IMG/VR virus record: IMGVR_UViG_3300045988_068596
Length of the DNA stretch: 64,000 bases
Direction: 5' to 3' (one strand)
Source: a virus
The translations under genes and the position numbers were made by a program. The stretch's first letter is position 1. Every line of letters starts with the position of its first letter. The notes beneath the pieces are model-generated. The model did no database searches and was not told the origin of the DNA. It worked only from the letters and a program-made list of their open reading frames with translations. This document shows positions 18,351 through 64,000 of this stretch, piece by piece.

Positions 18351-18557
18351 ATGCCAGAATCATTTAGACAAAAATCATCAGGAGCTTTAATTTTTAGACC
18401 TACAGTTTCTGAGAAAATCCATTCTAACCAGATGAAAGCTCTTGCTAAAGATAAAGAGAAATTGAACAGAGACATACAAGAGGTTAATAATTTAAAACAA
18501 GAATTGACTAAGGAATTAGAAGAAATTAGAGAATTAAAAAACAAGTTAAAAGGATAA
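18351..18557 (+). CDS. Small coiled-coil protein (68 aa).
   Basis: RBS aaaggag with an ATG start. Lys/Glu-rich heptad-like sequence. Confidence 0.4.
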   Translation: MPESFRQKSSGALIFRPTVSEKIHSNQMKALAKDKEKLNRDIQEVNNLKQELTKELEEIRELKNKLKG

Positions 18558-18685
18558 AATGTCCTATTTTAATTTTTTGACCTCCTTATATATTTAATAT
18601 TATATATTTAACTATTTATCTAAGTTATAAGTATTTATATATTATATATTTATATATAAGGGAACCAAAAATGGAAAATAGGACA

Positions 18686-18750: not shown

Positions 18751-20526
18751 ATGAGACTAGTAATAGATGTAATGCACACTCAGATTAGATTTGATGAAAA
18801 CGAAGGTAGTCTTCGTAGCACTATACATAGAGTAATGCACGAAGAACTTGGAGTAAAAGCAGATGGCTATCAATTTAGTCCTGCATATAAATCAGGTTAC
18901 TGGGATGGTATTATTGATTTTTATAATAAAGACAACGATACATTTCCTACAGGTCTAGTACCTAAAGTAGAGGAAATCCTAGGAAGACTACAAACTGCTA
19001 TGGGTAGTAGAGGTTACATGTTTCAATTTGAGATTATTGATGACAGACCTGACAAATTCATGGAAGTTGAAGAAATGGACTCAGAAATTAAATTGAATGG
19101 TGACAATGGAGAAATAATTACTCTACGTGACTATCAATATGATTCTGTAAAAAGTATTATTGAGAAGCAAACAGGTATTATCAATGTTGCTACTAATGGT
19201 GGTAAAACAGAGATTGCTTCTGGTTTAATACAGCAAATCCTACCTGCTTTAGAATCGGGAGAAAGGATTGCATTCTTTACAAACAGCTCCTCTATCTTCA
19301 CTCAATCTATCGACCGTATTGAAAAACGATTAGGCATTAAAGTAGGTGCCTTTGGAGCAGGTAAAAAGGATATTCAACAAGTTACATTTGTGATGATTCC
19401 AACAATTACCTCTGCTATTTCAGCAGACCCAGAAGCTAAACTTAAACTTACACCGAAAGAGCGTATGTACAAAAAGTTAGCTAAAGAGATTGCTCCTAAG
19501 TTCCTTACAGGATTTAATCAAAAAGGACTACTTGAAGGTTACATCCGTAACTTCCAAGTGAAAACAAAAGCTGATTTACAGTTGAAACATGAATTGGAAG
19601 AGGCTTACTACAGTTGTGGAACCAACAAACAGGTAGTGATGAAAATGCGTAGTTATCAAGCTGAGTATGAAAAGGTAGTCGAGAAAAAGAACGGGAAGGT
19701 CTTGAAGAAATACAACGAAGCAAAAGAGTTTTTAGAATCTGTTGCTGTTATGATTGTAGATGAGGCACACCATACTAGTTCTGATACTTGGTACCAAGCA
19801 CTAACTGCTTGTTCTAATGCTCAGTATCGTATGGCTTTAACAGGTTCTATTGACATGAAAAACCATGTGTTATGGCAAAGAATGCAAGCCATTTTTGGTT
19901 CCATTACTACCAAGGTATCAAATGACACCTTAATCAGTTTAGGTCACTCTGCAAAACCTAAAATTACCATTTTCCCAATTATTGCCCCTACAGACATCGA
20001 AAACTCCAATTACATGGATGCTTACAAGATGGGGATAGTGGACAATGTATACAGAAACTCTTTGATTGCTAAACTTACAAAGAAAATGTATGAGAGTGGC
20101 AGTGGTGTACTGGTAATTATTAATCGTATTGAACACGGGGAAACGATTAGTGAGTTATTAGATGCAGAAGGTGTACCACATTACTTCATTCACGGGGAGC
20201 TTGATAATGACTTACGTGATGAAAAGTTACAAGAAATGCGTGACGGACATTTGAAGGTGATGATTTCCTCAACAATTATTGATGAGGGGGTTGACATCTC
20301 CGGTATTGATACCTTAATATTAGGTGCAGGTGGTAAGTCCTTACGTCAAACCTTGCAACGGGTAGGTCGTGGCTTACGTAAGAAAAAGACAGGTGAAAAC
20401 AAGGTATCTGTTTTTGATTTTTACGACTTGACAAATAAACACTTGAAGAAACATTCGGAAGAGAGAAGAAAAATCTATGAGAAAGAACAATTTGAGATTG
20501 TTGACATCCCTCTTCCAACGAAATAA
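18751..20526 (+). CDS. Superfamily-2 DNA helicase (DEAH-box; UvsW/Res-subunit-like).
   Basis: Motif I 'ATNGGKTE', motif II 'VDEAHH', motif VI 'QRVGRGLR'. Confidence 0.7.
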   Translation: MRLVIDVMHTQIRFDENEGSLRSTIHRVMHEELGVKADGYQFSPAYKSGYWDGIIDFYNKDNDTFPTGLVPKVEEILGRLQTAMGSRGYMFQFEIIDDRPDKFMEVEEMDSEIKLNGDNGEIITLRDYQYDSVKSIIEKQTGIINVATNGGKTEIASGLIQQILPALESGERIAFFTNSSSIFTQSIDRIEKRLGIKVGAFGAGKKDIQQVTFVMIPTITSAISADPEAKLKLTPKERMYKKLAKEIAPKFLTGFNQKGLLEGYIRNFQVKTKADLQLKHELEEAYYSCGTNKQVVMKMRSYQAEYEKVVEKKNGKVLKKYNEAKEFLESVAVMIVDEAHHTSSDTWYQALTACSNAQYRMALTGSIDMKNHVLWQRMQAIFGSITTKVSNDTLISLGHSAKPKITIFPIIAPTDIENSNYMDAYKMGIVDNVYRNSLIAKLTKKMYESGSGVLVIINRIEHGETISELLDAEGVPHYFIHGELDNDLRDEKLQEMRDGHLKVMISSTIIDEGVDISGIDTLILGAGGKSLRQTLQRVGRGLRKKKTGENKVSVFDFYDLTNKHLKKHSEERRKIYEKEQFEIVDIPLPTK

Positions 20527-55507: not shown

Positions 55508-57814
55508 ATGAAACCATTCGAAGACATTTTTGATGTGTTGAACAAAGCACGTCAAAACAAAGACAAGGTAACACTTACTTTTATTGAAGGACTAGATAAT
55601 ATTGCTAAACTTCAAATTGAGGATTCTTCTGCTACAGCAGGAATCACTCGTTATGTAAAGTTCTACAACAATGACATCCGTAAGTTCCAGTACGTTGACC
55701 AAGCTGACTTTGAAGAAATGTATGCAGGCTTAGAAATGAAAACAGGTAAACCAAAAGAAGAAACAATTGAGTTTCCTTCTGAGGAAGTAGGAATTATCAG
55801 TGCTTTAAAAATCTTGCAACAAAGTGGTGTCTTTAGTGATGAAGACGGAATGCGAACTTTAGGAATTAACACGTCTACATTGAAAGATGCTCACTATATC
55901 TTACAGTATATTGAGCCTGCAATTGACCGTTACTTCGAATCTTTGAATAAGGATATTGAAGAATTAGACCGTGTGATGATTAACCAATCAGATGAACTTA
56001 AACAAAAAATCTGGGAGAGCTTTGTATTTAGCAAAGATAATCTAAACAAAATGCTAGATGAATTTGAATTAGCAACTTTAGACATGTTCCCAAATGTACC
56101 GTCTAATTTAATTGTTGAGACTTGTTCAGAAGTGAAGAAAACTCTTGAAGGGTTATTGATTGAAGATGCGGAAGAAAATCCTATTGAGTGTCATGATTAC
56201 CTTGTTAGTGGTTTCGTTGGTGCTGTTATCCGTATTGAACAATTTATTATTTCTGTTGCAACATTACCTTACCGTAGAACAGAATTAGAACTCAGAGAAT
56301 CAAGAGAAGCTTATATCAAAGAGCTTGCTTCAAATCTATTTCTCTTTGCAGAAGCTATTGCTCAGGTGTATGCTAGACTTGTATGCTCTATCTTAATGGA
56401 AAATTCTGCTGATATGCACAATGCTTCTGGATATATTCAAGTTATGGAAACAAAAGCGGTTCACTGGGTAAAAGAAGAAGCATTAGGTGGAACTATGTTA
56501 GCTAACAATGAGGAAGACCTTGTTGAGTTATCCCAAGCTTTAAACTCTATGACACTAGATGACGTACGTGAAACCCAAGAAGACCCTGAGAAGGCTGAGT
56601 TTAAAGAAGCTTTGGAAGAACTACTTAATGAGTTGATAGATATTTTTTCAGAAGACGAAGATGAAGAAGAGGAAGAAGACAAAGAAGACAATGAGGTACC
56701 TTTCGAAACACCTATGGTAGACATGGATGACCTCCTTGGATATTTACTATCGAAGGAACCTAAAGAAAAAGAAGAACCTGTAGAACTTTCAGATGATGCA
56801 AAAGCAGAGTTTGAGGAATACTTTGCAGATGAAATATACGAGCTTCAAGAACTCCGTAAAAAGGTAGAAGATGCTTTAACCATGTATGATAAGGTTACTG
56901 GTGAACTAGCATTAAACGAGTTAGATTCAGTAGCTATGGGAAATGTTCAATTAGCAATTTCAACGTTACGAAGAGCACTAGATAACACAGAGCTTGACTA
57001 CACTAAGAAAGGCTTACTTGAATCATTAGCTACTCTTAAAGGAGACAAACATACTTTTTATGTTGAATCTATTAGTGTTTTAGGAGATGCGTACGAGCTT
57101 TACAAAACACTTGGTGTAGGTATTACGGACTATGCACATGCAGTTGTTGAGGGCATTGAATGTTCTGTTGCGAATAAACGGGGTACAAACCCAGAAACAC
57201 AATTTGTGTTGAGTACAGTTACCTGTTTAATCGAACGTGAAATCGAAGCCTTAGAGGATGCTGAAGAATACTCAGATTTATTAGCCTTTTCTCTAGCCCT
57301 TTCATTGACTGCTGTGTTAGCAGATTGGAATAATTCATTTGGTGTAGTAAATGTTGATGTAAATGACTTTATCCCTAAGAAACGACCTTCTGTTGTTGTC
57401 GAAGAAGACGAAGAGGATGAAGAAGAAACAACAGACCTAGCTAAAGAGCTAAAAGACTTAATTCGTGGAACAGCACTAGATGCTGATACACAATCAGCTA
57501 GTGATATAGACGAAGAAGCCTTGATTACTGATTATAAAAATGGTGTCTCTCAAAGAGAACTCACAAAATGTTATAATATAAGTACAGGGAAGTTCTACTC
57601 AATTCTACGTAGACATGGTATCGCAGTAGATAGCTCTAAAGTAGCTAAAAAGGTTGCACATGTAGAAGAAAACCCGGAAGTACTTGAACAGGTTCTTAGA
57701 GATTATATCGAAGGTAAAACATTAGCTTACATCTACTCAAATTATAATCTATACAAAAACGGTTTGTTCTATCTACTAGACAAGTACCAAATTCCACGTA
57801 GAAACAAACGTTAA
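55508..57814 (+). CDS. Large poly-acidic early protein (768 aa) with a C-terminal HTH-like motif.
   Basis: Acidic tracts 'SEDEDEEEEEDKEDNE' and 'VVEEDEEDEEETTDL'. C-terminal 'SQRELTKCYNISTGKFYSILRRHGI' is HTH-like. Confidence 0.5.
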   Translation: MKPFEDIFDVLNKARQNKDKVTLTFIEGLDNIAKLQIEDSSATAGITRYVKFYNNDIRKFQYVDQADFEEMYAGLEMKTGKPKEETIEFPSEEVGIISALKILQQSGVFSDEDGMRTLGINTSTLKDAHYILQYIEPAIDRYFESLNKDIEELDRVMINQSDELKQKIWESFVFSKDNLNKMLDEFELATLDMFPNVPSNLIVETCSEVKKTLEGLLIEDAEENPIECHDYLVSGFVGAVIRIEQFIISVATLPYRRTELELRESREAYIKELASNLFLFAEAIAQVYARLVCSILMENSADMHNASGYIQVMETKAVHWVKEEALGGTMLANNEEDLVELSQALNSMTLDDVRETQEDPEKAEFKEALEELLNELIDIFSEDEDEEEEEDKEDNEVPFETPMVDMDDLLGYLLSKEPKEKEEPVELSDDAKAEFEEYFADEIYELQELRKKVEDALTMYDKVTGELALNELDSVAMGNVQLAISTLRRALDNTELDYTKKGLLESLATLKGDKHTFYVESISVLGDAYELYKTLGVGITDYAHAVVEGIECSVANKRGTNPETQFVLSTVTCLIEREIEALEDAEEYSDLLAFSLALSLTAVLADWNNSFGVVNVDVNDFIPKKRPSVVVEEDEEDEEETTDLAKELKDLIRGTALDADTQSASDIDEEALITDYKNGVSQRELTKCYNISTGKFYSILRRHGIAVDSSKVAKKVAHVEENPEVLEQVLRDYIEGKTLAYIYSNYNLYKNGLFYLLDKYQIPRRNKR

Positions 57815-57828
57815 CTTCCAAATAACTT

Positions 57829-57860
57829 TAGGCAGTGGCTACTATGGTCACTGCCTTTAA
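57829..57860 (+). terminator. Terminator hairpin ggcagtg-N11-cactgcc followed by ttt.
   Basis: Stem-loop directly after the 768-aa gene. Confidence 0.45.
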
Positions 57861-57872
57861 TAAGGAGAATAT

Positions 57873-58325
57873 TTGTTGGAAGAGACGGTTTATAATTTTA
57901 TACAAGGCTTAAGCGGGACACAATTAACTATATTAGAAGATACATTTGCTTTACTAGGACTAATCTTTATACTTATAGGAATACATTTTTTAGTAGCAGA
58001 TACAGTTGAATGGGTGAAACTTGTTAGGAATCCAAGAGTATCTACATTTGCAACAATACACATGTATTTTACTTTTTATCTACCGATGTTCATTTTCTTT
58101 TTGGTAGATGGTAGTACGGTTACTACTTTTGTTGTTTCATTACTGCTTTTTGCTGTTGCATATACATGGATTGTATGGCTTCGAGTGGGTAGATACACAG
58201 AAAATTGGTCAGTAGTACGTCCGTTTGTTACCTACATTAAAGCACAAGACCATGTGTGTACGCTAGTTATTGGTTCAGTACTTTTAAGAACAGTACTATT
58301 TTTTATAAAACTTAGGATAGGTTAA
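57873..58325 (+). CDS. Membrane protein (150 aa, ~4 TM).
   Basis: TTG start after RBS taaggagaa. Multiple hydrophobic helices. Confidence 0.45.
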   Translation: MLEETVYNFIQGLSGTQLTILEDTFALLGLIFILIGIHFLVADTVEWVKLVRNPRVSTFATIHMYFTFYLPMFIFFLVDGSTVTTFVVSLLLFAVAYTWIVWLRVGRYTENWSVVRPFVTYIKAQDHVCTLVIGSVLLRTVLFFIKLRIG

Positions 58326-58349
58326 GATAGGATAGGATAGGATGGAGGA
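58313..58349 (+). repeat. GATAGG / UAG-triplet purine repeat array overlapping the stop of the upstream gene and the Shine-Dalgarno of the 58358 gene.
   Basis: Sequence TAGgaTAGgttaagaTAGgaTAGgaTAGgatgGAGgat: six UAG/GAG triplets, mostly 2-nt spaced, ending 8 nt before the ATG. Confidence 0.6.
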
Positions 58350-58357
58350 TAAGATAT

Positions 58358-58918
58358 ATGAATGAAATAATGAGTTATGTTTGGTTGGGTGTATTTATTG
58401 CTATACCCGTAATTGGCTTTATCTATGTATATAATTACAATAGAAAAAATCCACGTTGGTACCTTCGCAAAAGCTACTGGGCGCCACTAGTGCTAGATTT
58501 AGTTGTTTTTGGTGTTTGGGCAATGGTAGGCGTAATTACACTAGCTGTTGGACATACAGAAACTACTACTAAAACATTTAATATTGAACCACTTACGGTT
58601 TATAATTCACCAGAAAATATTTATGCAAAGATAGGTAGCACGGATGACAGCTATGTTAACTTTGCAATTACAGGTAAAGGAACTCACTCTGCACCACTTG
58701 GTAACACTAGTATCCATTACGTTGAGTTCGAAGGTAGACCGAAAGTCACGGTTACTTACTACAAATTAGATTCCTCTTTCTCAGCCTTTATGGGGATGCA
58801 GGGAGAACTTGTAACTAAAAAAACTCGTGTAGATATTCAAGTACCTGTAGGTGGGGTGGATGTCACAAATACAAGTAGTACCTTTGAAGAGCAATCAGTA
58901 AACGATTTACTTAGATAA
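58358..58918 (+). CDS. Membrane-anchored protein (186 aa; N-terminal 2 TM plus a soluble domain). First cassette gene.
   Basis: ATG start. Hydrophobic N-terminus 'VWLGVFIAIPVIGFIYV' and 'LVLDLVVFGVWAMVGVITLAV'. Confidence 0.5.
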   Translation: MNEIMSYVWLGVFIAIPVIGFIYVYNYNRKNPRWYLRKSYWAPLVLDLVVFGVWAMVGVITLAVGHTETTTKTFNIEPLTVYNSPENIYAKIGSTDDSYVNFAITGKGTHSAPLGNTSIHYVEFEGRPKVTVTYYKLDSSFSAFMGMQGELVTKKTRVDIQVPVGGVDVTNTSSTFEEQSVNDLLR

Positions 58919-58922
58919 TTCC

Positions 58923-58963
58923 CTAAGTAGCGGGTTACAAAAATCCGCTAAGTAGCAGGCTAG
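58923..58963 (+). repeat. Two copies of the iteron CTAAGTAGCGGGTTACA / CTAAGTAGCAGGCTAG.
   Basis: Same repeat family as the 7-copy array at 63217-63380. Confidence 0.6.
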
Positions 58964-58992
58964 AGACATCTTTTATAGATGTCTCTTTTTTA
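58961..58992 (+). terminator. Rho-independent terminator.
   Basis: agagacatc-tttta-tagatgtctct followed by tttttta. Confidence 0.7.
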
Positions 58993-59021
58993 TTGACAAA
59001 CCTGTACAGCTATGCTACTAT
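58993..59021 (+). promoter_or_regulatory. Early promoter TTGACA-17-TACTAT (first of a tandem pair).
   Basis: Consensus -35 and -10 elements. Confidence 0.55.
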
Positions 59022-59063
59022 ATACATGTAAATAAAACAAGCTAAAAAATTTGAGCTTACCTA

Positions 59064-59092
59064 TTGACATTAAACAATGTACAGGCTATAAT
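59064..59092 (+). promoter_or_regulatory. Early promoter TATTGACATTAAACAA...TATAAT (second of the tandem pair).
   Basis: TTGACA-17-TATAAT, followed by the conserved GCTTGTAAGATAAA motif. Confidence 0.6.
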
Positions 59093-59126
59093 AAGCTTGT
59101 AAGATAAAACGAAGGAGGAATTTACA

Positions 59127-59363
59127 ATGGAAAAACAAAAACAAGTGATTACAAGAAAACAGTACGAGGAGATTATGGCACGTTATAACAAAATAGACTA
59201 TGCTATCATCGCAGGGTTCATTATCTTTGGCACAGTTATCTTTGGTTTTGGTGGATTTGTCTTTATGGCTATTGTTGGTGCGTTCACGTTCCCACGTATG
59301 AAACAAAAAAGCGTTAATTTAATGGAACAAGACTACATTGTTAGAGATGACATTCAACAGTAA
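59127..59363 (+). CDS. Small membrane protein (78 aa).
   Basis: RBS aaggaggaatttacaATG. Hydrophobic 'IIAGFIIFGTVIFGFGGFVFMAIVGAF'. Confidence 0.45.
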   Translation: MEKQKQVITRKQYEEIMARYNKIDYAIIAGFIIFGTVIFGFGGFVFMAIVGAFTFPRMKQKSVNLMEQDYIVRDDIQQ

Positions 59364-59372
59364 GCTTAATTG

Positions 59373-59401
59373 TTGACTATGAAAATTACAGGTGTTACTA
59401 T
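59373..59401 (+). promoter_or_regulatory. Promoter TTGACT-17-TACTAT.
   Basis: Near-consensus promoter upstream of the XRE-like gene. Confidence 0.5.
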
Positions 59402-59424
59402 AATGGTACAAGGAGGACAAAGAA

Positions 59425-59673
59425 ATGGCAGAAGCAAAAAAGAGCTATTCTGACATGACAGAGGAGGAAGCACAATATGCAATGGTATTAGGTGCTAGAA
59501 TCGCTCATGCACGAGAAGGGTTAGGTATTAGTCAAGGAGAACTAGGTAAGTTAGCAGGTTTCAATCAAACAACTATCTCTTTAATTGAGACAGGTAAACG
59601 GCTACCTAACTTAAAGACCCTTATCAGATTGAGTAAGATTCTTAAAAAAAGTTTGAAAATTACATTGGAATGA
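59425..59673 (+). CDS. XRE/Cro-type helix-turn-helix transcriptional regulator (82 aa).
   Basis: HTH_XRE pattern 'LGARIAHAREGLGISQGELGKLAGFNQTTISLIETGKR'. Confidence 0.6.
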   Translation: MAEAKKSYSDMTEEEAQYAMVLGARIAHAREGLGISQGELGKLAGFNQTTISLIETGKRLPNLKTLIRLSKILKKSLKITLE

Positions 59674-59705
59674 GGTAGAGAAAATAAAACAGGGGGAGAT
59701 TTATT

Positions 59706-60146
59706 ATGACAACGAAAGTAAAAGAAACAAAATCAAAAGTAAAGAATGGTGAACGTACACCGAAGGAATTTGTAGCAGGGATGAAACGTAGTAAGAAAGA
59801 CTTGTCACAAACGCAAGTGGTAACTTCTTTAATGGAAAACTATCCAGAACTTACACCAAAAGACATCCAAGAAATTACAGGTATTAAACGTGGAACTATC
59901 TATACAATCCAAAGTCGTCTACGTAGTGCTCATCGTAAGGAACATACAAAGACCGCAGATACGCCACATATGGATAAAGTAGAGTCTATTAGTGAAACCA
60001 TGAGTCCGGAAGCTATTGGTAAACAAGACTTATTCAATCGTTTAGCTGATGTATACTTAAAGAAGATTGAAGAAACCGAAGATATTGAAGAAGCTAGCAA
60101 ATATAATACGTTACTTATTCAAGTGATGGAAAGCTTAGATAAATGA
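59706..60146 (+). CDS. Hypothetical protein, possibly DNA-binding (146 aa).
   Basis: RBS gggggagatttattATG. HTH-like segment 'IQEITGIKRGTIYTIQSRL'. Confidence 0.35.
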   Translation: MTTKVKETKSKVKNGERTPKEFVAGMKRSKKDLSQTQVVTSLMENYPELTPKDIQEITGIKRGTIYTIQSRLRSAHRKEHTKTADTPHMDKVESISETMSPEAIGKQDLFNRLADVYLKKIEETEDIEEASKYNTLLIQVMESLDK

Positions 60147-60236
60147 TAGCAGGATTCTATTTATATAATTTAAGAGTCCTGATTCTACCGTATATTTAAC
60201 AGGAATGTGCGGTAGAATTTTATTTACATAAACCTA

Positions 60237-60265
60237 TTGACAATAAACAATAAATAGGATACTAT
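60237..60265 (+). promoter_or_regulatory. Early promoter TATTGACAATAAACAA-TACTAT followed by ATACATGTAAGATAAA.
   Basis: Conserved early promoter family. Confidence 0.6.
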
Positions 60266-60298
60266 ATACATGTAAGATAAATATAGGGAGATGTTTAA

Positions 60299-61045
60299 AT
60301 GCAAACAGAAACTAAAAATTTTGAAGTTATACGTAAGACAGATGATTTAATTTATTATCACTTTGCAAAAGAAAGTAGCTACGCTATCAGTAAGGTAGAT
60401 AAACAAGAGTGGGAAGAGGCAATGACTGAGTATGTGAATGATTTTCTTGAACAGGCTTACGGAAACATTCCACCTATTTCAGTGTATATTAACTCTAGGC
60501 TTTCTAGAACATTAGGTTGGTTTCAATATTATTTGAAAGACAAGGATAAACCTCCATATATTGAAGTAAGTAGCAGGCTAGTAAAAAGTGCGATTCTACT
60601 CACAGGTACTGAGCACAAGGAACTTGCATACACAGTAATTAACGACCTGTTAAGACATGAAGCTATTCACTATGCGTTGTATGTACTAGATAAACCTTCT
60701 AGTGATGGAGACGATACTTTTGAGAAAGACTTGTTTGTAACAGGGACATCCCCTAGCCTAAGTACACCAGAGTATAAAGTATATAAAAACGAGTTTCCTA
60801 GACTACTATGTAAATACTATGCAAAGTGTCCTGTATGCGATACTGTGCTTGCTTATGAGACCAGAGGACGTTACTATTGTATTCATAGATGTGTAGAAGA
60901 GGGGAAAACACATCCAGTCATCTTTAGACCTAAGAATGAATTAATCATTGGGGTACAGCCCCACGTATCTTACGGGAGAAAACTACTGGAAGGAACATAT
61001 GATGGAGCAGTTAAAGAATCTTACAGAAAGGGGATAGTTAACTAA
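60299..61045 (+). CDS. SprT-like zinc metalloprotease domain protein.
   Basis: HExxH motif 'RHEAIHYALY' plus the C-terminal zinc ribbon 'CPVCDTV...CIHRC'. Confidence 0.45.
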   Translation: MQTETKNFEVIRKTDDLIYYHFAKESSYAISKVDKQEWEEAMTEYVNDFLEQAYGNIPPISVYINSRLSRTLGWFQYYLKDKDKPPYIEVSSRLVKSAILLTGTEHKELAYTVINDLLRHEAIHYALYVLDKPSSDGDDTFEKDLFVTGTSPSLSTPEYKVYKNEFPRLLCKYYAKCPVCDTVLAYETRGRYYCIHRCVEEGKTHPVIFRPKNELIIGVQPHVSYGRKLLEGTYDGAVKESYRKGIVN

Positions 61046-61590
61046 TGGAAGTTAAAATAGACTTAACATCGGGTACAGCTACAGTTATTTTTAATGATAG
61101 TCCTACAGCAATAATAGAAAAATATCGTCATTCTATCTCATATGATGAAGTAAGTAATTACCGTAAAAGAGGGCATACAGTTTACTACGCTAACCCTGAG
61201 TATCGAGACCCCTACGTACTTAAAGATAAAGTTGTAGGTTCCAATTGGAAAGAATACATTGATAGCATGAATGAATTGCGGGAACAAATTACTCTAGCAG
61301 AGAACATAGGTATTACAGTCACAAATAAGGAAAGCTATGAAAAAGTATACAAACGAGCTTTAAAACAGTATGCACAGTTACTAGAAAAAGGAAAGCAAGA
61401 AAATAAACACAGACGTTTAATTAAGTTACTCTCTTCTCAGGACTACGAAACTTTAGTAACTTTAATAGAAACAGCTTCTTGGCATCTGTTAGACCACTAC
61501 GAGTACGAACATGCACCAATCCCACCGAAGGAGCAAGCTGTTATTGACATAAAAACTAAGTGGGATACAATAAGTAGAATAGAGGGATAA
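61045..61590 (+). CDS. Hypothetical protein (181 aa).
   Basis: ATG overlaps the upstream stop (TAATG). Confidence 0.4.
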   Translation: MEVKIDLTSGTATVIFNDSPTAIIEKYRHSISYDEVSNYRKRGHTVYYANPEYRDPYVLKDKVVGSNWKEYIDSMNELREQITLAENIGITVTNKESYEKVYKRALKQYAQLLEKGKQENKHRRLIKLLSSQDYETLVTLIETASWHLLDHYEYEHAPIPPKEQAVIDIKTKWDTISRIEG

Positions 61591-61608
61591 TATTTCCCTC
61601 TAAAATTT
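61581..61608 (+). terminator. Terminator-like hairpin agaggga-taatattt-ccctct followed by aaaattt.
   Basis: Stem-loop overlapping the gene end. Weak T-run. Confidence 0.35.
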
Positions 61609-61619
61609 AAACATATCTA

Positions 61620-61648
61620 TTGACAATAAACAATAGAAGAGTTATACT
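61620..61648 (+). promoter_or_regulatory. Early promoter TATTGACAATAAACAA-TATACT.
   Basis: Conserved early promoter family. Confidence 0.6.
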
Positions 61649-61674
61649 ATGTATGAAGATAAGGAAAGGGAGAG

Positions 61675-62007
61675 ATGAAAATGTTAAACTTTAATAAACA
61701 CGTAACAGCAGAAGATATTATCAGAGATGGAGAATACAATGATGCAGTTGTAGAACATATTATTGGAGAACTTGAAACAAGTGATAAGAAAAAATTAGCT
61801 CTATTCAAACAATGGATTGCAGACAAAAAAGAAGATGGAGACACGGAAGCTGTTGAATACTTTAAAGGTATGACAGACAAAGAAATTTTGGTTTACATGG
61901 ACTTAGACGAAATTGTAGAATACTATGAAGAAACAGGTCTTGCAGACTTTGCAGATAGTTTAGACATTGACTGGACAGGTTTACTAGAAAGCTTTGGAGT
62001 AGAATAG
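61675..62007 (+). CDS. Small acidic protein (110 aa).
   Basis: RBS aaagggagagATG. Confidence 0.4.
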   Translation: MKMLNFNKHVTAEDIIRDGEYNDAVVEHIIGELETSDKKKLALFKQWIADKKEDGDTEAVEYFKGMTDKEILVYMDLDEIVEYYEETGLADFADSLDIDWTGLLESFGVE

Positions 62008-62018
62008 GGGGAACCAAC

Positions 62019-62663
62019 TTGAACACAGAAAACAGAGTAAGAAGAGGGAGACCTCGTAAATATCCAGAGGGAGCTAAACGGGTAGACAATACAAGTTTGA
62101 TAGTCACAAAGAAACAAAAAGAATACATTGGTAATATCGCAAAGTTAAACAAGGAAACAGTAAAAGAGACAAGTAACAGGCTACTAAAAGAAGTTTTAGA
62201 TGGCAAGTTTGATTACTTGTTAACACCTATTGTAGAAGAAGATGTACCATCTGTGCCAGTAACAGTGGATAGGAAGTTGACACATGAGGTACAGAAGTAT
62301 TTAGAGGGTTACAACGAGAATGCTTCGGAAGTAATACGGAAAATAGTGGAGGAGTTTATGATTATGACAGACAGAACACTGAAAGTAGTTGGGGGTTACG
62401 AACTGGGGGTAACTTCCATTACAAAAGAGCTTAAACGATTTTGGTTGAAACCTACAGAGGAAGCAGAAGAAAATATGTTCTTTATGGATGCCTCCATTCA
62501 ACTAGATGTGGATAACCGACATGTAGTCATTCGTGAAAAATCTATGGGTGTCCGCTCAATCAGTCAAATGGAAGAGCTTAAACGCTACAAAGACCAACTG
62601 ATAGAGACAGCTTCACAATTACAGGATGCACTGGATACTTACGTTGCGAAACATTTAGGATAA
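62019..62663 (+). CDS. AT-hook-containing protein (214 aa).
   Basis: N-terminal 'RVRRGRPRKYPEG' matches the AT-hook core RGRP. TTG start with RBS tagggggaacc. Confidence 0.4.
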   Translation: MNTENRVRRGRPRKYPEGAKRVDNTSLIVTKKQKEYIGNIAKLNKETVKETSNRLLKEVLDGKFDYLLTPIVEEDVPSVPVTVDRKLTHEVQKYLEGYNENASEVIRKIVEEFMIMTDRTLKVVGGYELGVTSITKELKRFWLKPTEEAEENMFFMDASIQLDVDNRHVVIREKSMGVRSISQMEELKRYKDQLIETASQLQDALDTYVAKHLG

Positions 62664-62770
62664 ACTTTTAGGATATAGGATAGGATAAACAGGATAGGAT
62701 GCGTTTAGGATAGGATAAGATAGGATAAGATTCACTTAGGATAGGATAGGATGAAAGGAGACAGGATATA
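62654..62770 (+). repeat. Long GGATAGGATA / UAG-triplet purine repeat array (~11 UAG triplets) spanning the stop of the 62019 gene through the Shine-Dalgarno of the 62771 gene.
   Basis: Sequence ttTAGgataTAGgaTAGgataaacaggaTAGgatgcgttTAGgaTAGgataagaTAGgataagattcactTAGgaTAGgaTAGgatgaaaggag. Confidence 0.6.
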
Positions 62771-63220
62771 ATGTTAAGTACAGCAGAATATGATTCACTT
62801 AGAGAGTATTTAGTAGCCGTAATTCATAACCAAATTAGTGAGGATGAGAGAGACACACAAAGCTTAGACGTATGGAAGGAAGAGGTTGACAAGCTGACAG
62901 TAGACAATTGGAGAGAACGTTGCATAAACCTAGCAGATTTGTTATATGTAGATACTCCCGCTTCACTGGCAGACATTTACAAAGATTATAAAGAGGAGCT
63001 AAACGAAATACTCAGAGATTACACAGATGAGCTACGTGCAGGAGCTACGTTCAATAAGGTAGCTGACGAGCGCCTAGGGTGGATGTGGGAAGACTATGAC
63101 CCATTAATACTAGAAGCACATAATCAAGGTCTAGTGGCTCGTTTAGGGCTTCTAATCGTTGCTGAACAACTTGCTACTCAATTAGAACAAGGGACGTTTA
63201 CAATACCATATGATAACTAA
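62771..63220 (+). CDS. Second cassette gene: soluble acidic protein (149 aa).
   Basis: RBS aaaggagacaggatataATG. Confidence 0.45.
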   Translation: MLSTAEYDSLREYLVAVIHNQISEDERDTQSLDVWKEEVDKLTVDNWRERCINLADLLYVDTPASLADIYKDYKEELNEILRDYTDELRAGATFNKVADERLGWMWEDYDPLILEAHNQGLVARLGLLIVAEQLATQLEQGTFTIPYDN

Positions 63221-63380
63221 GTAACAGGCTAGCCTAAGTAGCAGGCTAGCTTTTTTCTTCTAAGTAGCAGGTTAGCTAAAATCTTCTAAGTAACGGGCTA
63301 CAGTAAAAAAACTCTAAGTAGCGGGCTACAAAAATCCTCTAAGTAGCGGGCTACAAAAATCCTCTAAGTAGCGGGCTACA
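63217..63380 (+). repeat. Array of seven ~16-17-bp iterons (consensus CTAAGTAGCGGGCTACA) with a ~25-bp period and conserved AAAATCCTC spacers in the 3' copies.
   Basis: Copies at 63217, 63234, 63261, 63287, 63315, 63340 and 63365. Each contains the palindrome GTAGC-GG-GCTAC. Confidence 0.7.
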
Positions 63381-63519
63381 AACAGCTTATAAAATCCCGA
63401 GGCATACCATCCGACAACCAGACCCGTCACCTTTGCCCGTTCAATATGCCACCACTTAAACCCATTTTTTTTCTTATATATAGAAGAAAAAAGTTTTTCA
63501 TCTTTTTTAGTGTTTTCTA

Positions 63520-63548
63520 TTGACATTAAGAAATAGGCATGATATAGT
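63520..63548 (+). promoter_or_regulatory. Early promoter TTGACA-17-TATAGT, followed by an RBS-like aaaggag with no ORF.
   Basis: First of tandem promoters upstream of the 63679 gene. Confidence 0.5.
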
Positions 63549-63606
63549 ATAGACAGTTAAAGAAAGGAGAAACAAAAAAATAAATAAAAAAATTTAAAAA
63601 AAGTTA

Positions 63607-63635
63607 TTGACATTAAACAATAAACACTATATAAT
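63607..63635 (+). promoter_or_regulatory. Early promoter TATTGACATTAAACAA-TATAAT followed by AAACATGTAAGATAAA.
   Basis: Conserved early promoter family. Confidence 0.6.
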
Positions 63636-63678
63636 AAACATGTAAGATAAATAAGACAAAAGAAAGAGGGAACTAAAA

Positions 63679-63954
63679 ATGGAAAAACAAATTATTGTAA
63701 ACTTTTTGAAAGAGATTGAAAAAAATATTAAAATGGTAAACAGAGGCTTAAAATCTGAAAACGAAACTCACAGCGAACTTGTTGGCATGTATGACGGCAT
63801 TAAGTTAGCAATGAAAACAATCAATCCCGACACCGTAAACATTGACTTACATTATACACGTACAATCATAGAAAACTATTTTGTAGGTACTAATGAACAA
63901 AAAGAAAACGCCCTAGAAGCTTTACAGCTTGCGTTATCAGTCGCAAAAGACTAA
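63679..63954 (+). CDS. Small early protein (91 aa).
   Basis: RBS agaaagagggaactaaaaATG. Confidence 0.4.
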   Translation: MEKQIIVNFLKEIEKNIKMVNRGLKSENETHSELVGMYDGIKLAMKTINPDTVNIDLHYTRTIIENYFVGTNEQKENALEALQLALSVAKD

Positions 63955-63964
63955 CATATAAAAC

Positions 63965-63995
63965 GGCGGGACACGTTCCCGCCTTACATAAAAAA
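63965..63995 (+). terminator. Terminator-like hairpin ggcggga-cacgt-tcccgcc.
   Basis: 7-bp GC-rich stem. A-rich rather than T-rich tail on this strand; it could act bidirectionally. Confidence 0.35.
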
Positions 63996-64000
63996 AATTA

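Follow-up and report, generated by a model that had tools for sequence, protein, structure and literature searches.

Introduction

The closest described counterpart of the element treated here comes from the P100-like Listeria phage CKA15. A multi-omics paper of 2025 reports in that phage a 1.2-kb 'relative transcriptional dead zone', which starts at the stop codon of CKA15_188 with (TAGGA)27 and (TAGGA)33; an 80%-AT segment 785 bp further on was suggested as a possible origin (PMC12282133). We have analyzed a stretch of virus DNA of 64,000 nucleotides, IMG/VR record IMGVR_UViG_3300045988_068596 (the whole stretch is called the window in what follows), which carries a landmark made of two halves. 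The first is an array of TAGGA-type pentamers, starting from the stop codon of the gene before it, and the second is a set of direct repeats of a unit with the 9-mer core CTAAGTAGC. We regard the CKA15 landmark as the same element: a TAGGA array running from the preceding stop codon, non-coding DNA, AT-rich DNA and then immediate-early genes. The CKA15 paper deals with the pentamer repeat only, and mentions neither the CTAAGTAGC units nor any homology to other genera. The window differs from CKA15 and Pecentumvirus in having the landmark twice and a conserved gene between the halves, so that the interval is not free of coding sequence. As in the Listeria phages A511 and VEfB7, its units lie on the same strand and are followed by AT-rich DNA with early promoters.

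A second described system in the same family is the boundary of the K-like (Kayvirus) terminal repeats, which is marked by the 12-bp inverted repeats TAAGTACCTGGG and CCCAGGTACTTA (PMC6022877, PMC4111496). These, too, are short conserved non-coding motifs near the early region, and they have the core TAAGTA in common with the units. They are, however, single inverted copies at two edges, whereas the motifs of the window are tandem and direct, all on the + strand, and not at the edges of those terminal repeats that have been measured. Phage K carries both the boundary repeats and the units, at different places.

Our main finding is that the two halves together form a bipartite, strand-fixed landmark common to Brockvirinae, Jasinkavirinae and Twortvirinae, and that this landmark heads clusters of early promoters. 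The layout is constant. A TAGGA or TTAGGATAG array starts at the preceding stop codon, and zero to two small lineage-specific genes and the CTAAGTAGC direct repeats follow. After the units come a short G+C-rich stretch, an AT hairpin or AT-rich DNA, and strong sigma-A early promoters. Our search of the literature returned no description of the CTAAGTAGC unit or of the pairing. An initial annotation of this DNA knew of no described phage system with this arrangement. This is almost correct: the CKA15 paper mentions the (TAGGA)n half in passing (PMC12282133), and we did not find the rest. The unit half, the pairing, the distribution over three subfamilies, and the links to promoter spacers and to mosaic junctions appear to be undescribed so far.

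The two loci in the window

The four arrays are where the initial annotation had placed them, as confirmed by the sequence and by motif counts:

58308-58356, + strand: 5′ half of locus 1, about eight TAGGA/TAAGA pentamers
58923-58962, + strand: 3′ half of locus 1, two CTAAGTAGC units, 25 bp apart
62654-62753, + strand: 5′ half of locus 2, an interrupted TTAGGATAGG-type array of about 15 pentamers
63217-63378, + strand: 3′ half of locus 2, seven CTAAGTA(G/A)C units at spacings of 17, 26, 26, 28, 25 and 25 bp

The 15-mer CTAAGTAGCGGGCTA, when up to three mismatches are allowed, has 10 matches in the 64-kb window against 0.86 expected. All are on the + strand, and none of 100 shuffles attained this number. 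The matches fall at 58923-58962 (two), 63217-63378 (seven) and 60566-60580 (one). For TAGGATAGGATA with up to two mismatches there are 20 matches in the window against 6.9 expected; 14 of them, all on the + strand, lie within 58313-58356 and 62676-62753. Tandem Repeats Finder recovers the same arrays as the motif search. Pentamer arrays and CTAAGTAGC-type units are confined in the window to these two loci, which agree in strand and in the order of the halves. In the complete genome of ZJGS3 (150,445 bp, 98% identical), both motifs are likewise found at the two homologous loci only, save for one stray 9-mer where 2.9 would be expected by chance.

The single match at 60566-60580 is a unit-like copy, GTAAGTAGCAGGCTA, inside a SprT-like open reading frame (ORF) at 60299-61045. 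Its ZJGS3 counterpart is GTAAGTAGTAGGCTA, which has one change. The copy could be functional or coincidental.

It should be noted that (TAGGA)4 by itself is present in 38 IMG/VR contigs, giant viruses included, and is not specific to these phages. Since it turns up in many unrelated viral contigs, the specific feature is the pairing of a pentamer array with CTAAGTAGC units.

At each locus the two halves enclose one gene:

58358-58918, + strand: 186-aa protein with two hydrophobic segments, phrog_33649
62771-63220, + strand: 149-aa acidic protein, isoelectric point 4.2, phrog_17103

The two were said to be unrelated, and so they are: BLASTP gives no alignment between the 186-aa and 149-aa proteins, and their PHROG families differ. 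The 186-aa protein is 80% identical to its counterpart in phage 156. The pentamer arrays were further said to overlap both the upstream stop codon and the Shine-Dalgarno (SD) sequence of the enclosed gene. The former is true of both loci, where the TAA at 58323-58325 (of ORF 57873-58325) and that at 62661-62663 (of ORF 62019-62663) lie inside the arrays. The latter holds at locus 1, where the SD sequence GGAGGA (58344-58349) of the gene at 58358-58918 forms part of the 3′-end of the array; at locus 2, the SD sequence AAAGGAG (62755-62761) preceding the gene at 62771-63220 is just 3′ of it. At the other side of the enclosed genes, the two units of locus 1 are placed between the stop codon of the gene at 58358-58918 and a terminator, and the stop codon TAA of the gene at 62771-63220 lies within unit 1 of the locus-2 array. 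The two units of locus 1 are also kept in iF6, phage 156 and three further sequences (L035, L048 and L052).

Conservation among the Herelleviridae

The region is 96-99% identical to Enterococcus Herelleviridae of the EFDG1/Schiekvirus type (GVEsP-1, ZJGS3, EA1), and judged by its sequence the window is that of an Enterococcus Schiekvirus (Herelleviridae). A blastn search with three units returned 115 phage records, 61 from Enterococcus phages, 53 from Listeria phages and one named only 'phage'; those of Enterococcus and Listeria are all Herelleviridae. Scans of IMG/VR with two- and three-unit patterns found multi-unit arrays only on contigs identified as, or sized like, Herelleviridae. The three-unit pattern matched 36 times in 185,579 bacterial genomes, always in unrelated taxa (e.g., Bacteroidota, Planctomycetota) and never in Enterococcus, Listeria or Staphylococcus. 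An element of the host genome is ruled out, as none of these 36 matches is in the host genera.

The initial annotation had proposed to look for the two repeats in related Herelleviridae. The same pair recurs in the same order and on one strand in four genera, Schiekvirus, Kochikohdavirus, Listeria Pecentumvirus and Staphylococcus Kayvirus; the phages concerned are ZJGS3, iF6, phage 156, EFLK1, EFP01, KEN11, A511, VEfB7, phage K and Stab20. The expectation that the pair would always flank a gene was not borne out, as the Listeria phages hold no gene between the halves.

In the Kochikohdavirus KEN11, the first part is a 150-bp TTAGGATAG array, followed by a gene for a 148-aa acidic protein. This protein is 25% identical to the 149-aa protein of the window, and its gene lies between the same two arrays. 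After it come a hairpin with a T tract and at least six units of 25 bp. In the Listeria phages A511 and VEfB7, a (GGATA)12-13 array starts at the gp171 stop codon and ends in a hairpin with a T tract. It is followed by about 700 bp of non-coding DNA with six CTAAGTAG units on the same strand, and then by early promoters, so that both halves are held in about 1 kb of non-coding DNA. In the staphylococcal phages K and Stab20, TAGGATA arrays run across the K_006/K_007 and K_007/K_008 junctions, and the K_008 stop codon is directly followed by four CTAAGTAGCTC units and then an AT palindrome. The whole module is here part of the long terminal repeat. In a Twort-like contig (93% identity to Staphylococcus phage Alsa_1), about 15 units extend over 3.5 kb, and a canonical TAGGA array is absent. 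In SPO1, neither array was found in the whole genome (132.5 kb).

The invariant part of the unit across these groups is the asymmetric 9-mer CTAAGTAGC, and the flanks vary. The units had been described as palindromic. This is correct for Schiekvirus and Pecentumvirus, whose units contain the palindrome GTAGC-NN-GCTAC, and incorrect for Kochikohdavirus and Kayvirus, whose units lack it; in Twort-like units the palindrome is compressed to GTAGCTAC. Phage K also has a perfect 14-bp palindrome, TAAGTAGCTACTTA, which amounts to two inverted unit cores (segment L054 347-362). The first gene of the terminal repeat has its strong promoter about 70 bp downstream of this palindrome.

What is enclosed by the two halves differs among subfamilies: PHROGs 33649, 17103, 1099 and 3522, or no gene at all. 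When the region is compared with that of KEN11, a DNA alignment is possible only for the arrays (76-88% identity) and the early promoters. That the core has been kept while the enclosed protein drifted to 25% identity points to selection on the sequence of the arrays.

Relation to the genome ends

A position near the earliest genes and the terminal repeat raises the question of an end signal. The arrays might be a terminal-repeat boundary or packaging site related to the K-like motif TAAGTACCTGGG, or a stop for DNA injection of the kind known from coliphage T5. TAAGTA is common to the units and the published K-like boundary 12-mer (PMC6022877, PMC4111496), and in Brockvirinae and Pecentumvirus the landmark heads the block of early genes that runs to the terminal repeat. 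The known repeats are placed otherwise. In iF6, where restriction analysis and RAGE gave a length of 2108 bp (PMC10054541), about 5.1 kb separates the array from the start of the repeat downstream. Phage 163, with published termini, has about 4.9 kb in between, and A511, by its annotated repeat, about 7.4 kb. The annotated repeat of phage K encloses the module, which is about 3 kb in from its edge. No unit is found at the repeat edges of iF6 or A511. These positions, together with the unit-free edges, led us to reject a boundary or physical end. The KEN11 record (PP582184.1), and probably that of KEN16, begins and ends inside the 25-bp tandem array (segments L001 1-150 and L008 9830-9959); as it both starts and ends there, this is an assembly break and not a terminus. 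The T5 injection-stop region is alike in being repeat-rich non-coding DNA that borders the earliest genes near a long terminal repeat. There is no sequence relation, however, and no evidence of two-step transfer in Herelleviridae, and the position relative to the repeat depends on the genus. These phages are not known to inject their DNA stepwise. An end signal of any of these kinds is thus the explanation to which we give the least credence.

Enterococcus and Listeria phages seem to have kept the same terminal-repeat edges: CCCCAG(C)ATTTT at the left one and, just inside the right one, a common G-rich element of about 45 nt, CC(C)ACCCCGTGGTT(T/C)TG(C/T)GACCGTA(T/C)TT(A/T)GGGGC (iF6, L005 13126-13150 and 15180-15243; VEfB7, L003 4950-4975; A511, L006 1-20 and 3060-3125, L007 10480-10510). 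These elements may be the actual end-recognition signal. In the Twort-like contig (L055, reverse complement 2150-2340), a purine-rich TATAGG/TAAGTA array and two CTAAGTAAT units stand beside GTGCCTGGGCATTTTTG, which resembles the K-like boundary motif TAAGTACCTGGG. Given this likeness, the boundary motif may in Twortvirinae be a relative of the unit family.

Copy number, recombination and mosaic junctions

The arrays are variable in length. ZJGS3, although 98% identical to the window, has six units at locus 2 where the window has seven, and two more pentamers at locus 1. Pentamer counts in the different phages go from two, in iF6 and phage 156, up to 27+33. Phage 156 has 2 units of the Schiekvirus type and 15 of the Kochikohdavirus type. 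In its annotation, this tandem array appears as a protein-coding gene (PHI156_116), almost certainly by mistake.

Phage 156 also shows where exchange occurs. As far as the pentamer array, and once more from the start of the unit array, it matches KEN11 at 96-97% identity; the intervening 2.4 kb is 85-90% identical to the window at 58295-59608 and 62669-63382. The same 2.4-kb insert of Schiekvirus type, bounded by both arrays, is seen in vB_EfaH_149, which like phage 156 is classified as Kochikohdavirus. In phage 156 (segment L004 17532-20100) the insert holds the membrane-protein gene, two units, a 78-aa gene and a truncated XRE gene, and also the acidic gene, at 98% protein identity. A second kind of junction appears when the window is compared with iF6, EFP01 and two metagenomic Schiekviruses. 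In these four comparisons homology is lost upstream of 62656-62680 and resumes at the left edge of the second pentamer array. Thus, the arrays are homology patches for recombination between related phages. Because they are conserved while their flanks diverge, they serve as such patches, and different genes are found between them.

The arrays might be nothing but recombination linkers, with no regulation of their own, which persist by mediating the exchange of the enclosed small genes. Such linkers would account for the coincidence of mosaic junctions with arrays, in phage 156 as in the four Schiekvirus comparisons, and for the differences among subfamilies in the genes enclosed. However, an exact 9-mer and a pentamer that persist across subfamilies lacking other DNA similarity require sequence-specific selection and not just homology. 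The modules number only one or two per genome, and the same breakpoints are expected from recombination at any conserved island. A purely linking role is therefore quite doubtful.

The promoter-early stem-loop (PeSL) cassettes of T4-type phages come to mind here, as these, too, are conserved non-coding repeats: they stand on either side of small, variable early genes, and mosaic junctions fall on them. A PeSL combines a promoter and a hairpin in one unit, which is dispersed in many copies. The present system has two repeat types, neither with a promoter inside it, and one or two modules per genome (two loci in 150 kb), which is not the dispersed-promoter arrangement of PeSLs. The initial annotation had offered a modular, mobile cassette system as one explanation. 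Of this, the modular exchange is supported by the mosaic breakpoints that fall on the arrays; a dispersed cassette system is not what we see.

Terminators, promoters and spacers around the units

The DNA that follows the units contains the following features:

58962-58994, + strand: intrinsic terminator, 10-bp stem and T tract, abutting unit 2 of locus 1
63226-63258, + strand: intrinsic-terminator hairpin made of units 1-2 of locus 2, AGGCTAGCCT...AGGCTAGC (63226-63252) and then TTTTTT
63385-63486, no strand assigned: C-rich, G-poor spacer, then an AT-only hairpin (TTTTCTT-loop-AAGAAAA)
63520-63635, + strand: two early promoters of sigma-70-type consensus, heading the early-gene cluster that runs to the terminal repeat

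The terminator at 58962-58994 is immediately upstream of an early promoter at 58993-59021. As units 1-2 of locus 2 form a terminator, units 3-7 are downstream of it. The hairpin of units 1-2 is the sole robust helix of the locus-2 unit array, and the fold of the whole array has a z-score of -0.9.

Promoters of sigma-70-type consensus come directly after each unit cluster (58993 and 59064 at locus 1; 63520 and 63607 at locus 2), and the clusters are 30-140 bp upstream of early promoters in the window. The gene map downstream of the promoters at 63520-63635 was taken from ZJGS3 and iF6. The 200 nt at 63451-63650 (20% G+C), which contain the 63520 and 63607 promoters, are the second most AT-rich of the window.

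In KEN11, phage K and the Twort-like contig, too, the units are followed at this position by a G+C-rich stretch and then an AT palindrome. In the window, the stretch between the locus-2 units and the AT hairpin is 70 nt long (63385-63455), C-rich and G-poor on the + strand; Rfam gave no match for it. The G+C-rich stretches at this position in KEN11, A511 and the Twort-like contig have no obvious sequence similarity.

Early promoters share an extended consensus, CTATTGACAWTAAACAAT...TATAAT, then (A)ACATGTAAGATAAA at the transcript start. Promoters of this kind are at 59064-59110, 60237-60285, 61620-61665 and 63607-63655 in the window, and about nine more lie downstream in ZJGS3 (segment L002 26384-32480). 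GTAAGATAAA occurs three times in the window, each time at the transcript-start position of an early promoter. The leader motif TAAGATA is similar to TAAGATAGG, a variant in the pentamer array, which may be chance.

Proposed arrays of binding sites on DNA

The initial annotation treated the arrays as 5′ and 3′ modules of particular genes. This view does not survive the comparison. The corresponding Listeria DNA is about 1 kb of non-coding sequence that is reported to be silent, most units of locus 2 come after a terminator, the 5′ array can shrink to two copies (iF6, phage 156), and the 5′ and 3′ parts are not complementary above background in the window. Most likely, then, the landmark is one conserved cis-acting DNA element and not a set of appendages of the genes that happen to adjoin it.

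The reading that we find best, and hold tentatively at a little short of even confidence, is that the CTAAGTAGC units are putative double-stranded sites for a sequence-specific protein that controls or insulates the adjacent early promoters. The units would act as double-stranded DNA, as an operator- or iteron-type array for one putative protein, either made by the phage or brought in with the virion. Bound to the units, the protein could repress the adjacent early promoters, shut them off, or insulate them from upstream read-through. The units are probably read as DNA, given that most follow terminators and that the Listeria equivalent is reported silent. The TAGGA array, in turn, would be a slippage-prone, transcribed junction element that provides stop codons in three frames, because UAG recurs every 5 nt, and SD-like AGGA motifs. 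It might also be a multi-site target for a second factor. The exact role of this array is the weakest part of the model.

A link to promoters is seen in the Twort-like contig. There, CTAAGTAG(C/T) lies in the 17-bp spacer of five sigma-A-type promoters. Three of these, on the minus strand and with perfect hexamers, read TTGACA-G(C/T)TACTTA(G/A)...-TATAAT/TATACT; the other two, on the plus strand, read TTG(T/A)(A/T)T...CTAAGTAG(T/C)CATGA-TATAAT. Such promoters also have further units stacked directly before them. Binding of a protein in the promoter spacer would occlude RNA polymerase.

Several points weigh against the binding-site reading. The promoter-spacer case is that of one Twort-like contig, and three of its five promoters may be paralogous copies. 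The early promoters of the window contain no unit (0 promoters), and the spacing of the units, 23-28 bp, is no multiple of the helical repeat. The units of locus 1 are upstream of a terminator and hence transcribed, and in phage K the whole region is reported to be transcribed (PMC9241854). The model lacks an explanation for the conservation of the TAGGA pentamer across genera, nor does a purely DNA-level model predict that the array always starts at a stop codon. Finally, the two helix-turn-helix proteins encoded between the loci, one XRE-type and the other of 146 aa, were found in Enterococcus phages only, within the sensitivity of tblastn.

A trans-acting, DNA-binding factor had been put forward in the initial annotation. 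It would be the most economical reading for the 3′ units; the helix-turn-helix proteins named there as candidates do not fit. Both were rejected as the binder, because their distribution differs from that of the motif. At the level of BLASTP, no protein family is common to the module neighborhoods of the different subfamilies. A Chi-like site was also considered and dropped: AGCGG is present only in some units, has a variable G/A position, and is absent from Kochikohdavirus and Kayvirus units.

Possible control through RNA

As the 5′ array is transcribed in all cases and overlaps both a stop codon and an SD sequence, an explanation in terms of RNA suggests itself; it was the first idea of the initial annotation. 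The UAGGA array in the 5′ untranslated region (UTR) could be a multi-site target for a ring- or dimer-type RNA-binding protein, like TRAP or CsrA. In variants of this idea it would be the target of an endoribonuclease or a ribosome standby site, and the units would be 3′-UTR sites. TRAP sites in Bacillus consist of 9-11 G/UAG triplets with 2-3-nt spacers, and some overlap the SD sequence. The pentamer arrays are like them in their UAG-GA periodicity, in being unstructured and in overlapping the SD sequence. The second array has about 12 UAG triplets with GA spacers, in clusters, and UAG triplets with 2-nt spacers match the geometry of TRAP sites in B. subtilis. The pentamer array is predicted to be single-stranded: the RNA of the second array has a minimum free energy of -10 kcal/mol over 151 nt, with a z-score of +0.8, and would be unstructured. 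The units of locus 1, too, are in a 3′ UTR, before the terminator.

Several points speak against control of this kind. In the Listeria phages no gene follows it, and a hairpin with a T tract ends transcription right behind it. The number of pentamers varies from 2 to 60, and most units are beyond terminators. No TRAP-like protein was found in the window to set beside the Bacillus sites. More generally, searches with TRAP, CsrA and HutP query sequences found no similar ORF in the window (64 of about 150 kb); the TRAP (MtrB-family) query had no match at E<1 among 472 window ORFs. The hosts are not known to have TRAP. We therefore consider control through RNA, in any of these forms, to be distinctly improbable.

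Two related possibilities were tried and set aside. Pairing between the 5′ and 3′ RNAs (AGGAU/AUCCU; CUUAG/CUAAG) gave duplex energies that are no better than those of random genome segments in the window. The fraction of segments at least as good was 0.6-0.7 in the window, 0.15 in KEN11 and 0.005 in phage K, of which only phage K stands out. As for a structured or known RNA, there was no Rfam match of note in 57800-64000, and the unit array folds no better than shuffles.

A possible replication origin

The main rival to the binding-site reading is an iteron-type origin, in which the CTAAGTAGC repeats would bind a phage initiator and AT-rich DNA about 80-150 bp downstream would unwind. The resemblance to iterons (e.g., lambda ori, P1 oriR) lies in the direct repeats with a period of about 20-25 bp, beside AT-rich DNA, that may overlap promoters. 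At locus 2, seven direct repeats are 70-140 bp from the region of 20% G+C at 63451-63650. The homologous Listeria region is untranscribed, and an origin was proposed there by its authors (PMC12282133). Initiators often also bind promoter sites, with which the spacer units of the Twort-like contig are compatible.

The differences from iterons are several. Copy number and spacing are loose here, with 2 to 17 units among the phages and, in Listeria phages, irregular spacing. The position is duplicated and transcribed in phage K, where the module, being inside the 8.5-kb terminal repeat, is present in two copies per virion DNA. There is no skew or DnaA-box support: the GC skew flips at the strand switch only and not at the arrays, and DnaA boxes are not enriched. 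The neighboring proteins have no Rep-like Pfam or PHROG assignment, although many of them are without an assigned function. The AT-rich stretch after locus 2 is fully accounted for by the two consensus promoters and their leaders.

Other places in these genomes compete for the role. In phage K, transcriptomics led to the proposal of an origin in the untranscribed AT-rich gap between gp190 and gp191, elsewhere than the module (PMC9241854). Neither motif is found at that gap in the 59.5 kb examined. The lowest G+C content of the window is at 18451-18650, where AT tandem repeats stand directly upstream of a helicase gene. The gap in question, 18451-18660, has 18.5% G+C and (TTATATAT)n-type tandem repeats and precedes the DNA helicase gene at 18751-20526; judged in the way that was used for phage K, this gap makes a stronger candidate for an origin than the arrays do. 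An origin at the arrays is therefore unlikely in our estimate, though worth keeping in view. A single perfect DnaA box, TTATCCACA, is found on the minus strand at 62499-62515, in a variable 214-aa gene about 150 bp upstream of the second pentamer array. It has no counterpart near the modules of the other genera.

In a broader alternative to protein-controlled early promoters, the landmark would be a bipartite genome-organizing element, read by a conserved phage or virion protein, that bounds the first-expressed segment of the genome. It could do so, for example, by a pause or stop in DNA entry, or by nucleating silencing of the early region. By its conservation, the same element would also be the preferred crossover site of the family for host-takeover genes. 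Taken jointly, these proposals strike us as rather unlikely.

Concluding remarks

We prefer the view that the CTAAGTAGC units are binding sites on DNA, with the reservations given above. Whatever the mechanism, the tandem arrays have practical consequences. They break short-read assemblies, as in the KEN11 record, and their variation in copy number could be a strain marker. To phage engineering the landmark offers a natural site of insertion where foreign genes are tolerated, and it helps in interpreting mosaicism. This is relevant because phage K, A511/P100 and the EFDG1-type phages are leading candidates for phage therapy and biocontrol. In these phages, early-gene shut-off, the start of replication and the organization of the genome are largely uncharted. 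The element explains where gene exchange in the host-takeover region occurs. Kept where almost no other DNA similarity survives, it marks a site under strong selection, and provides a defined bait for finding the factor that reads it.

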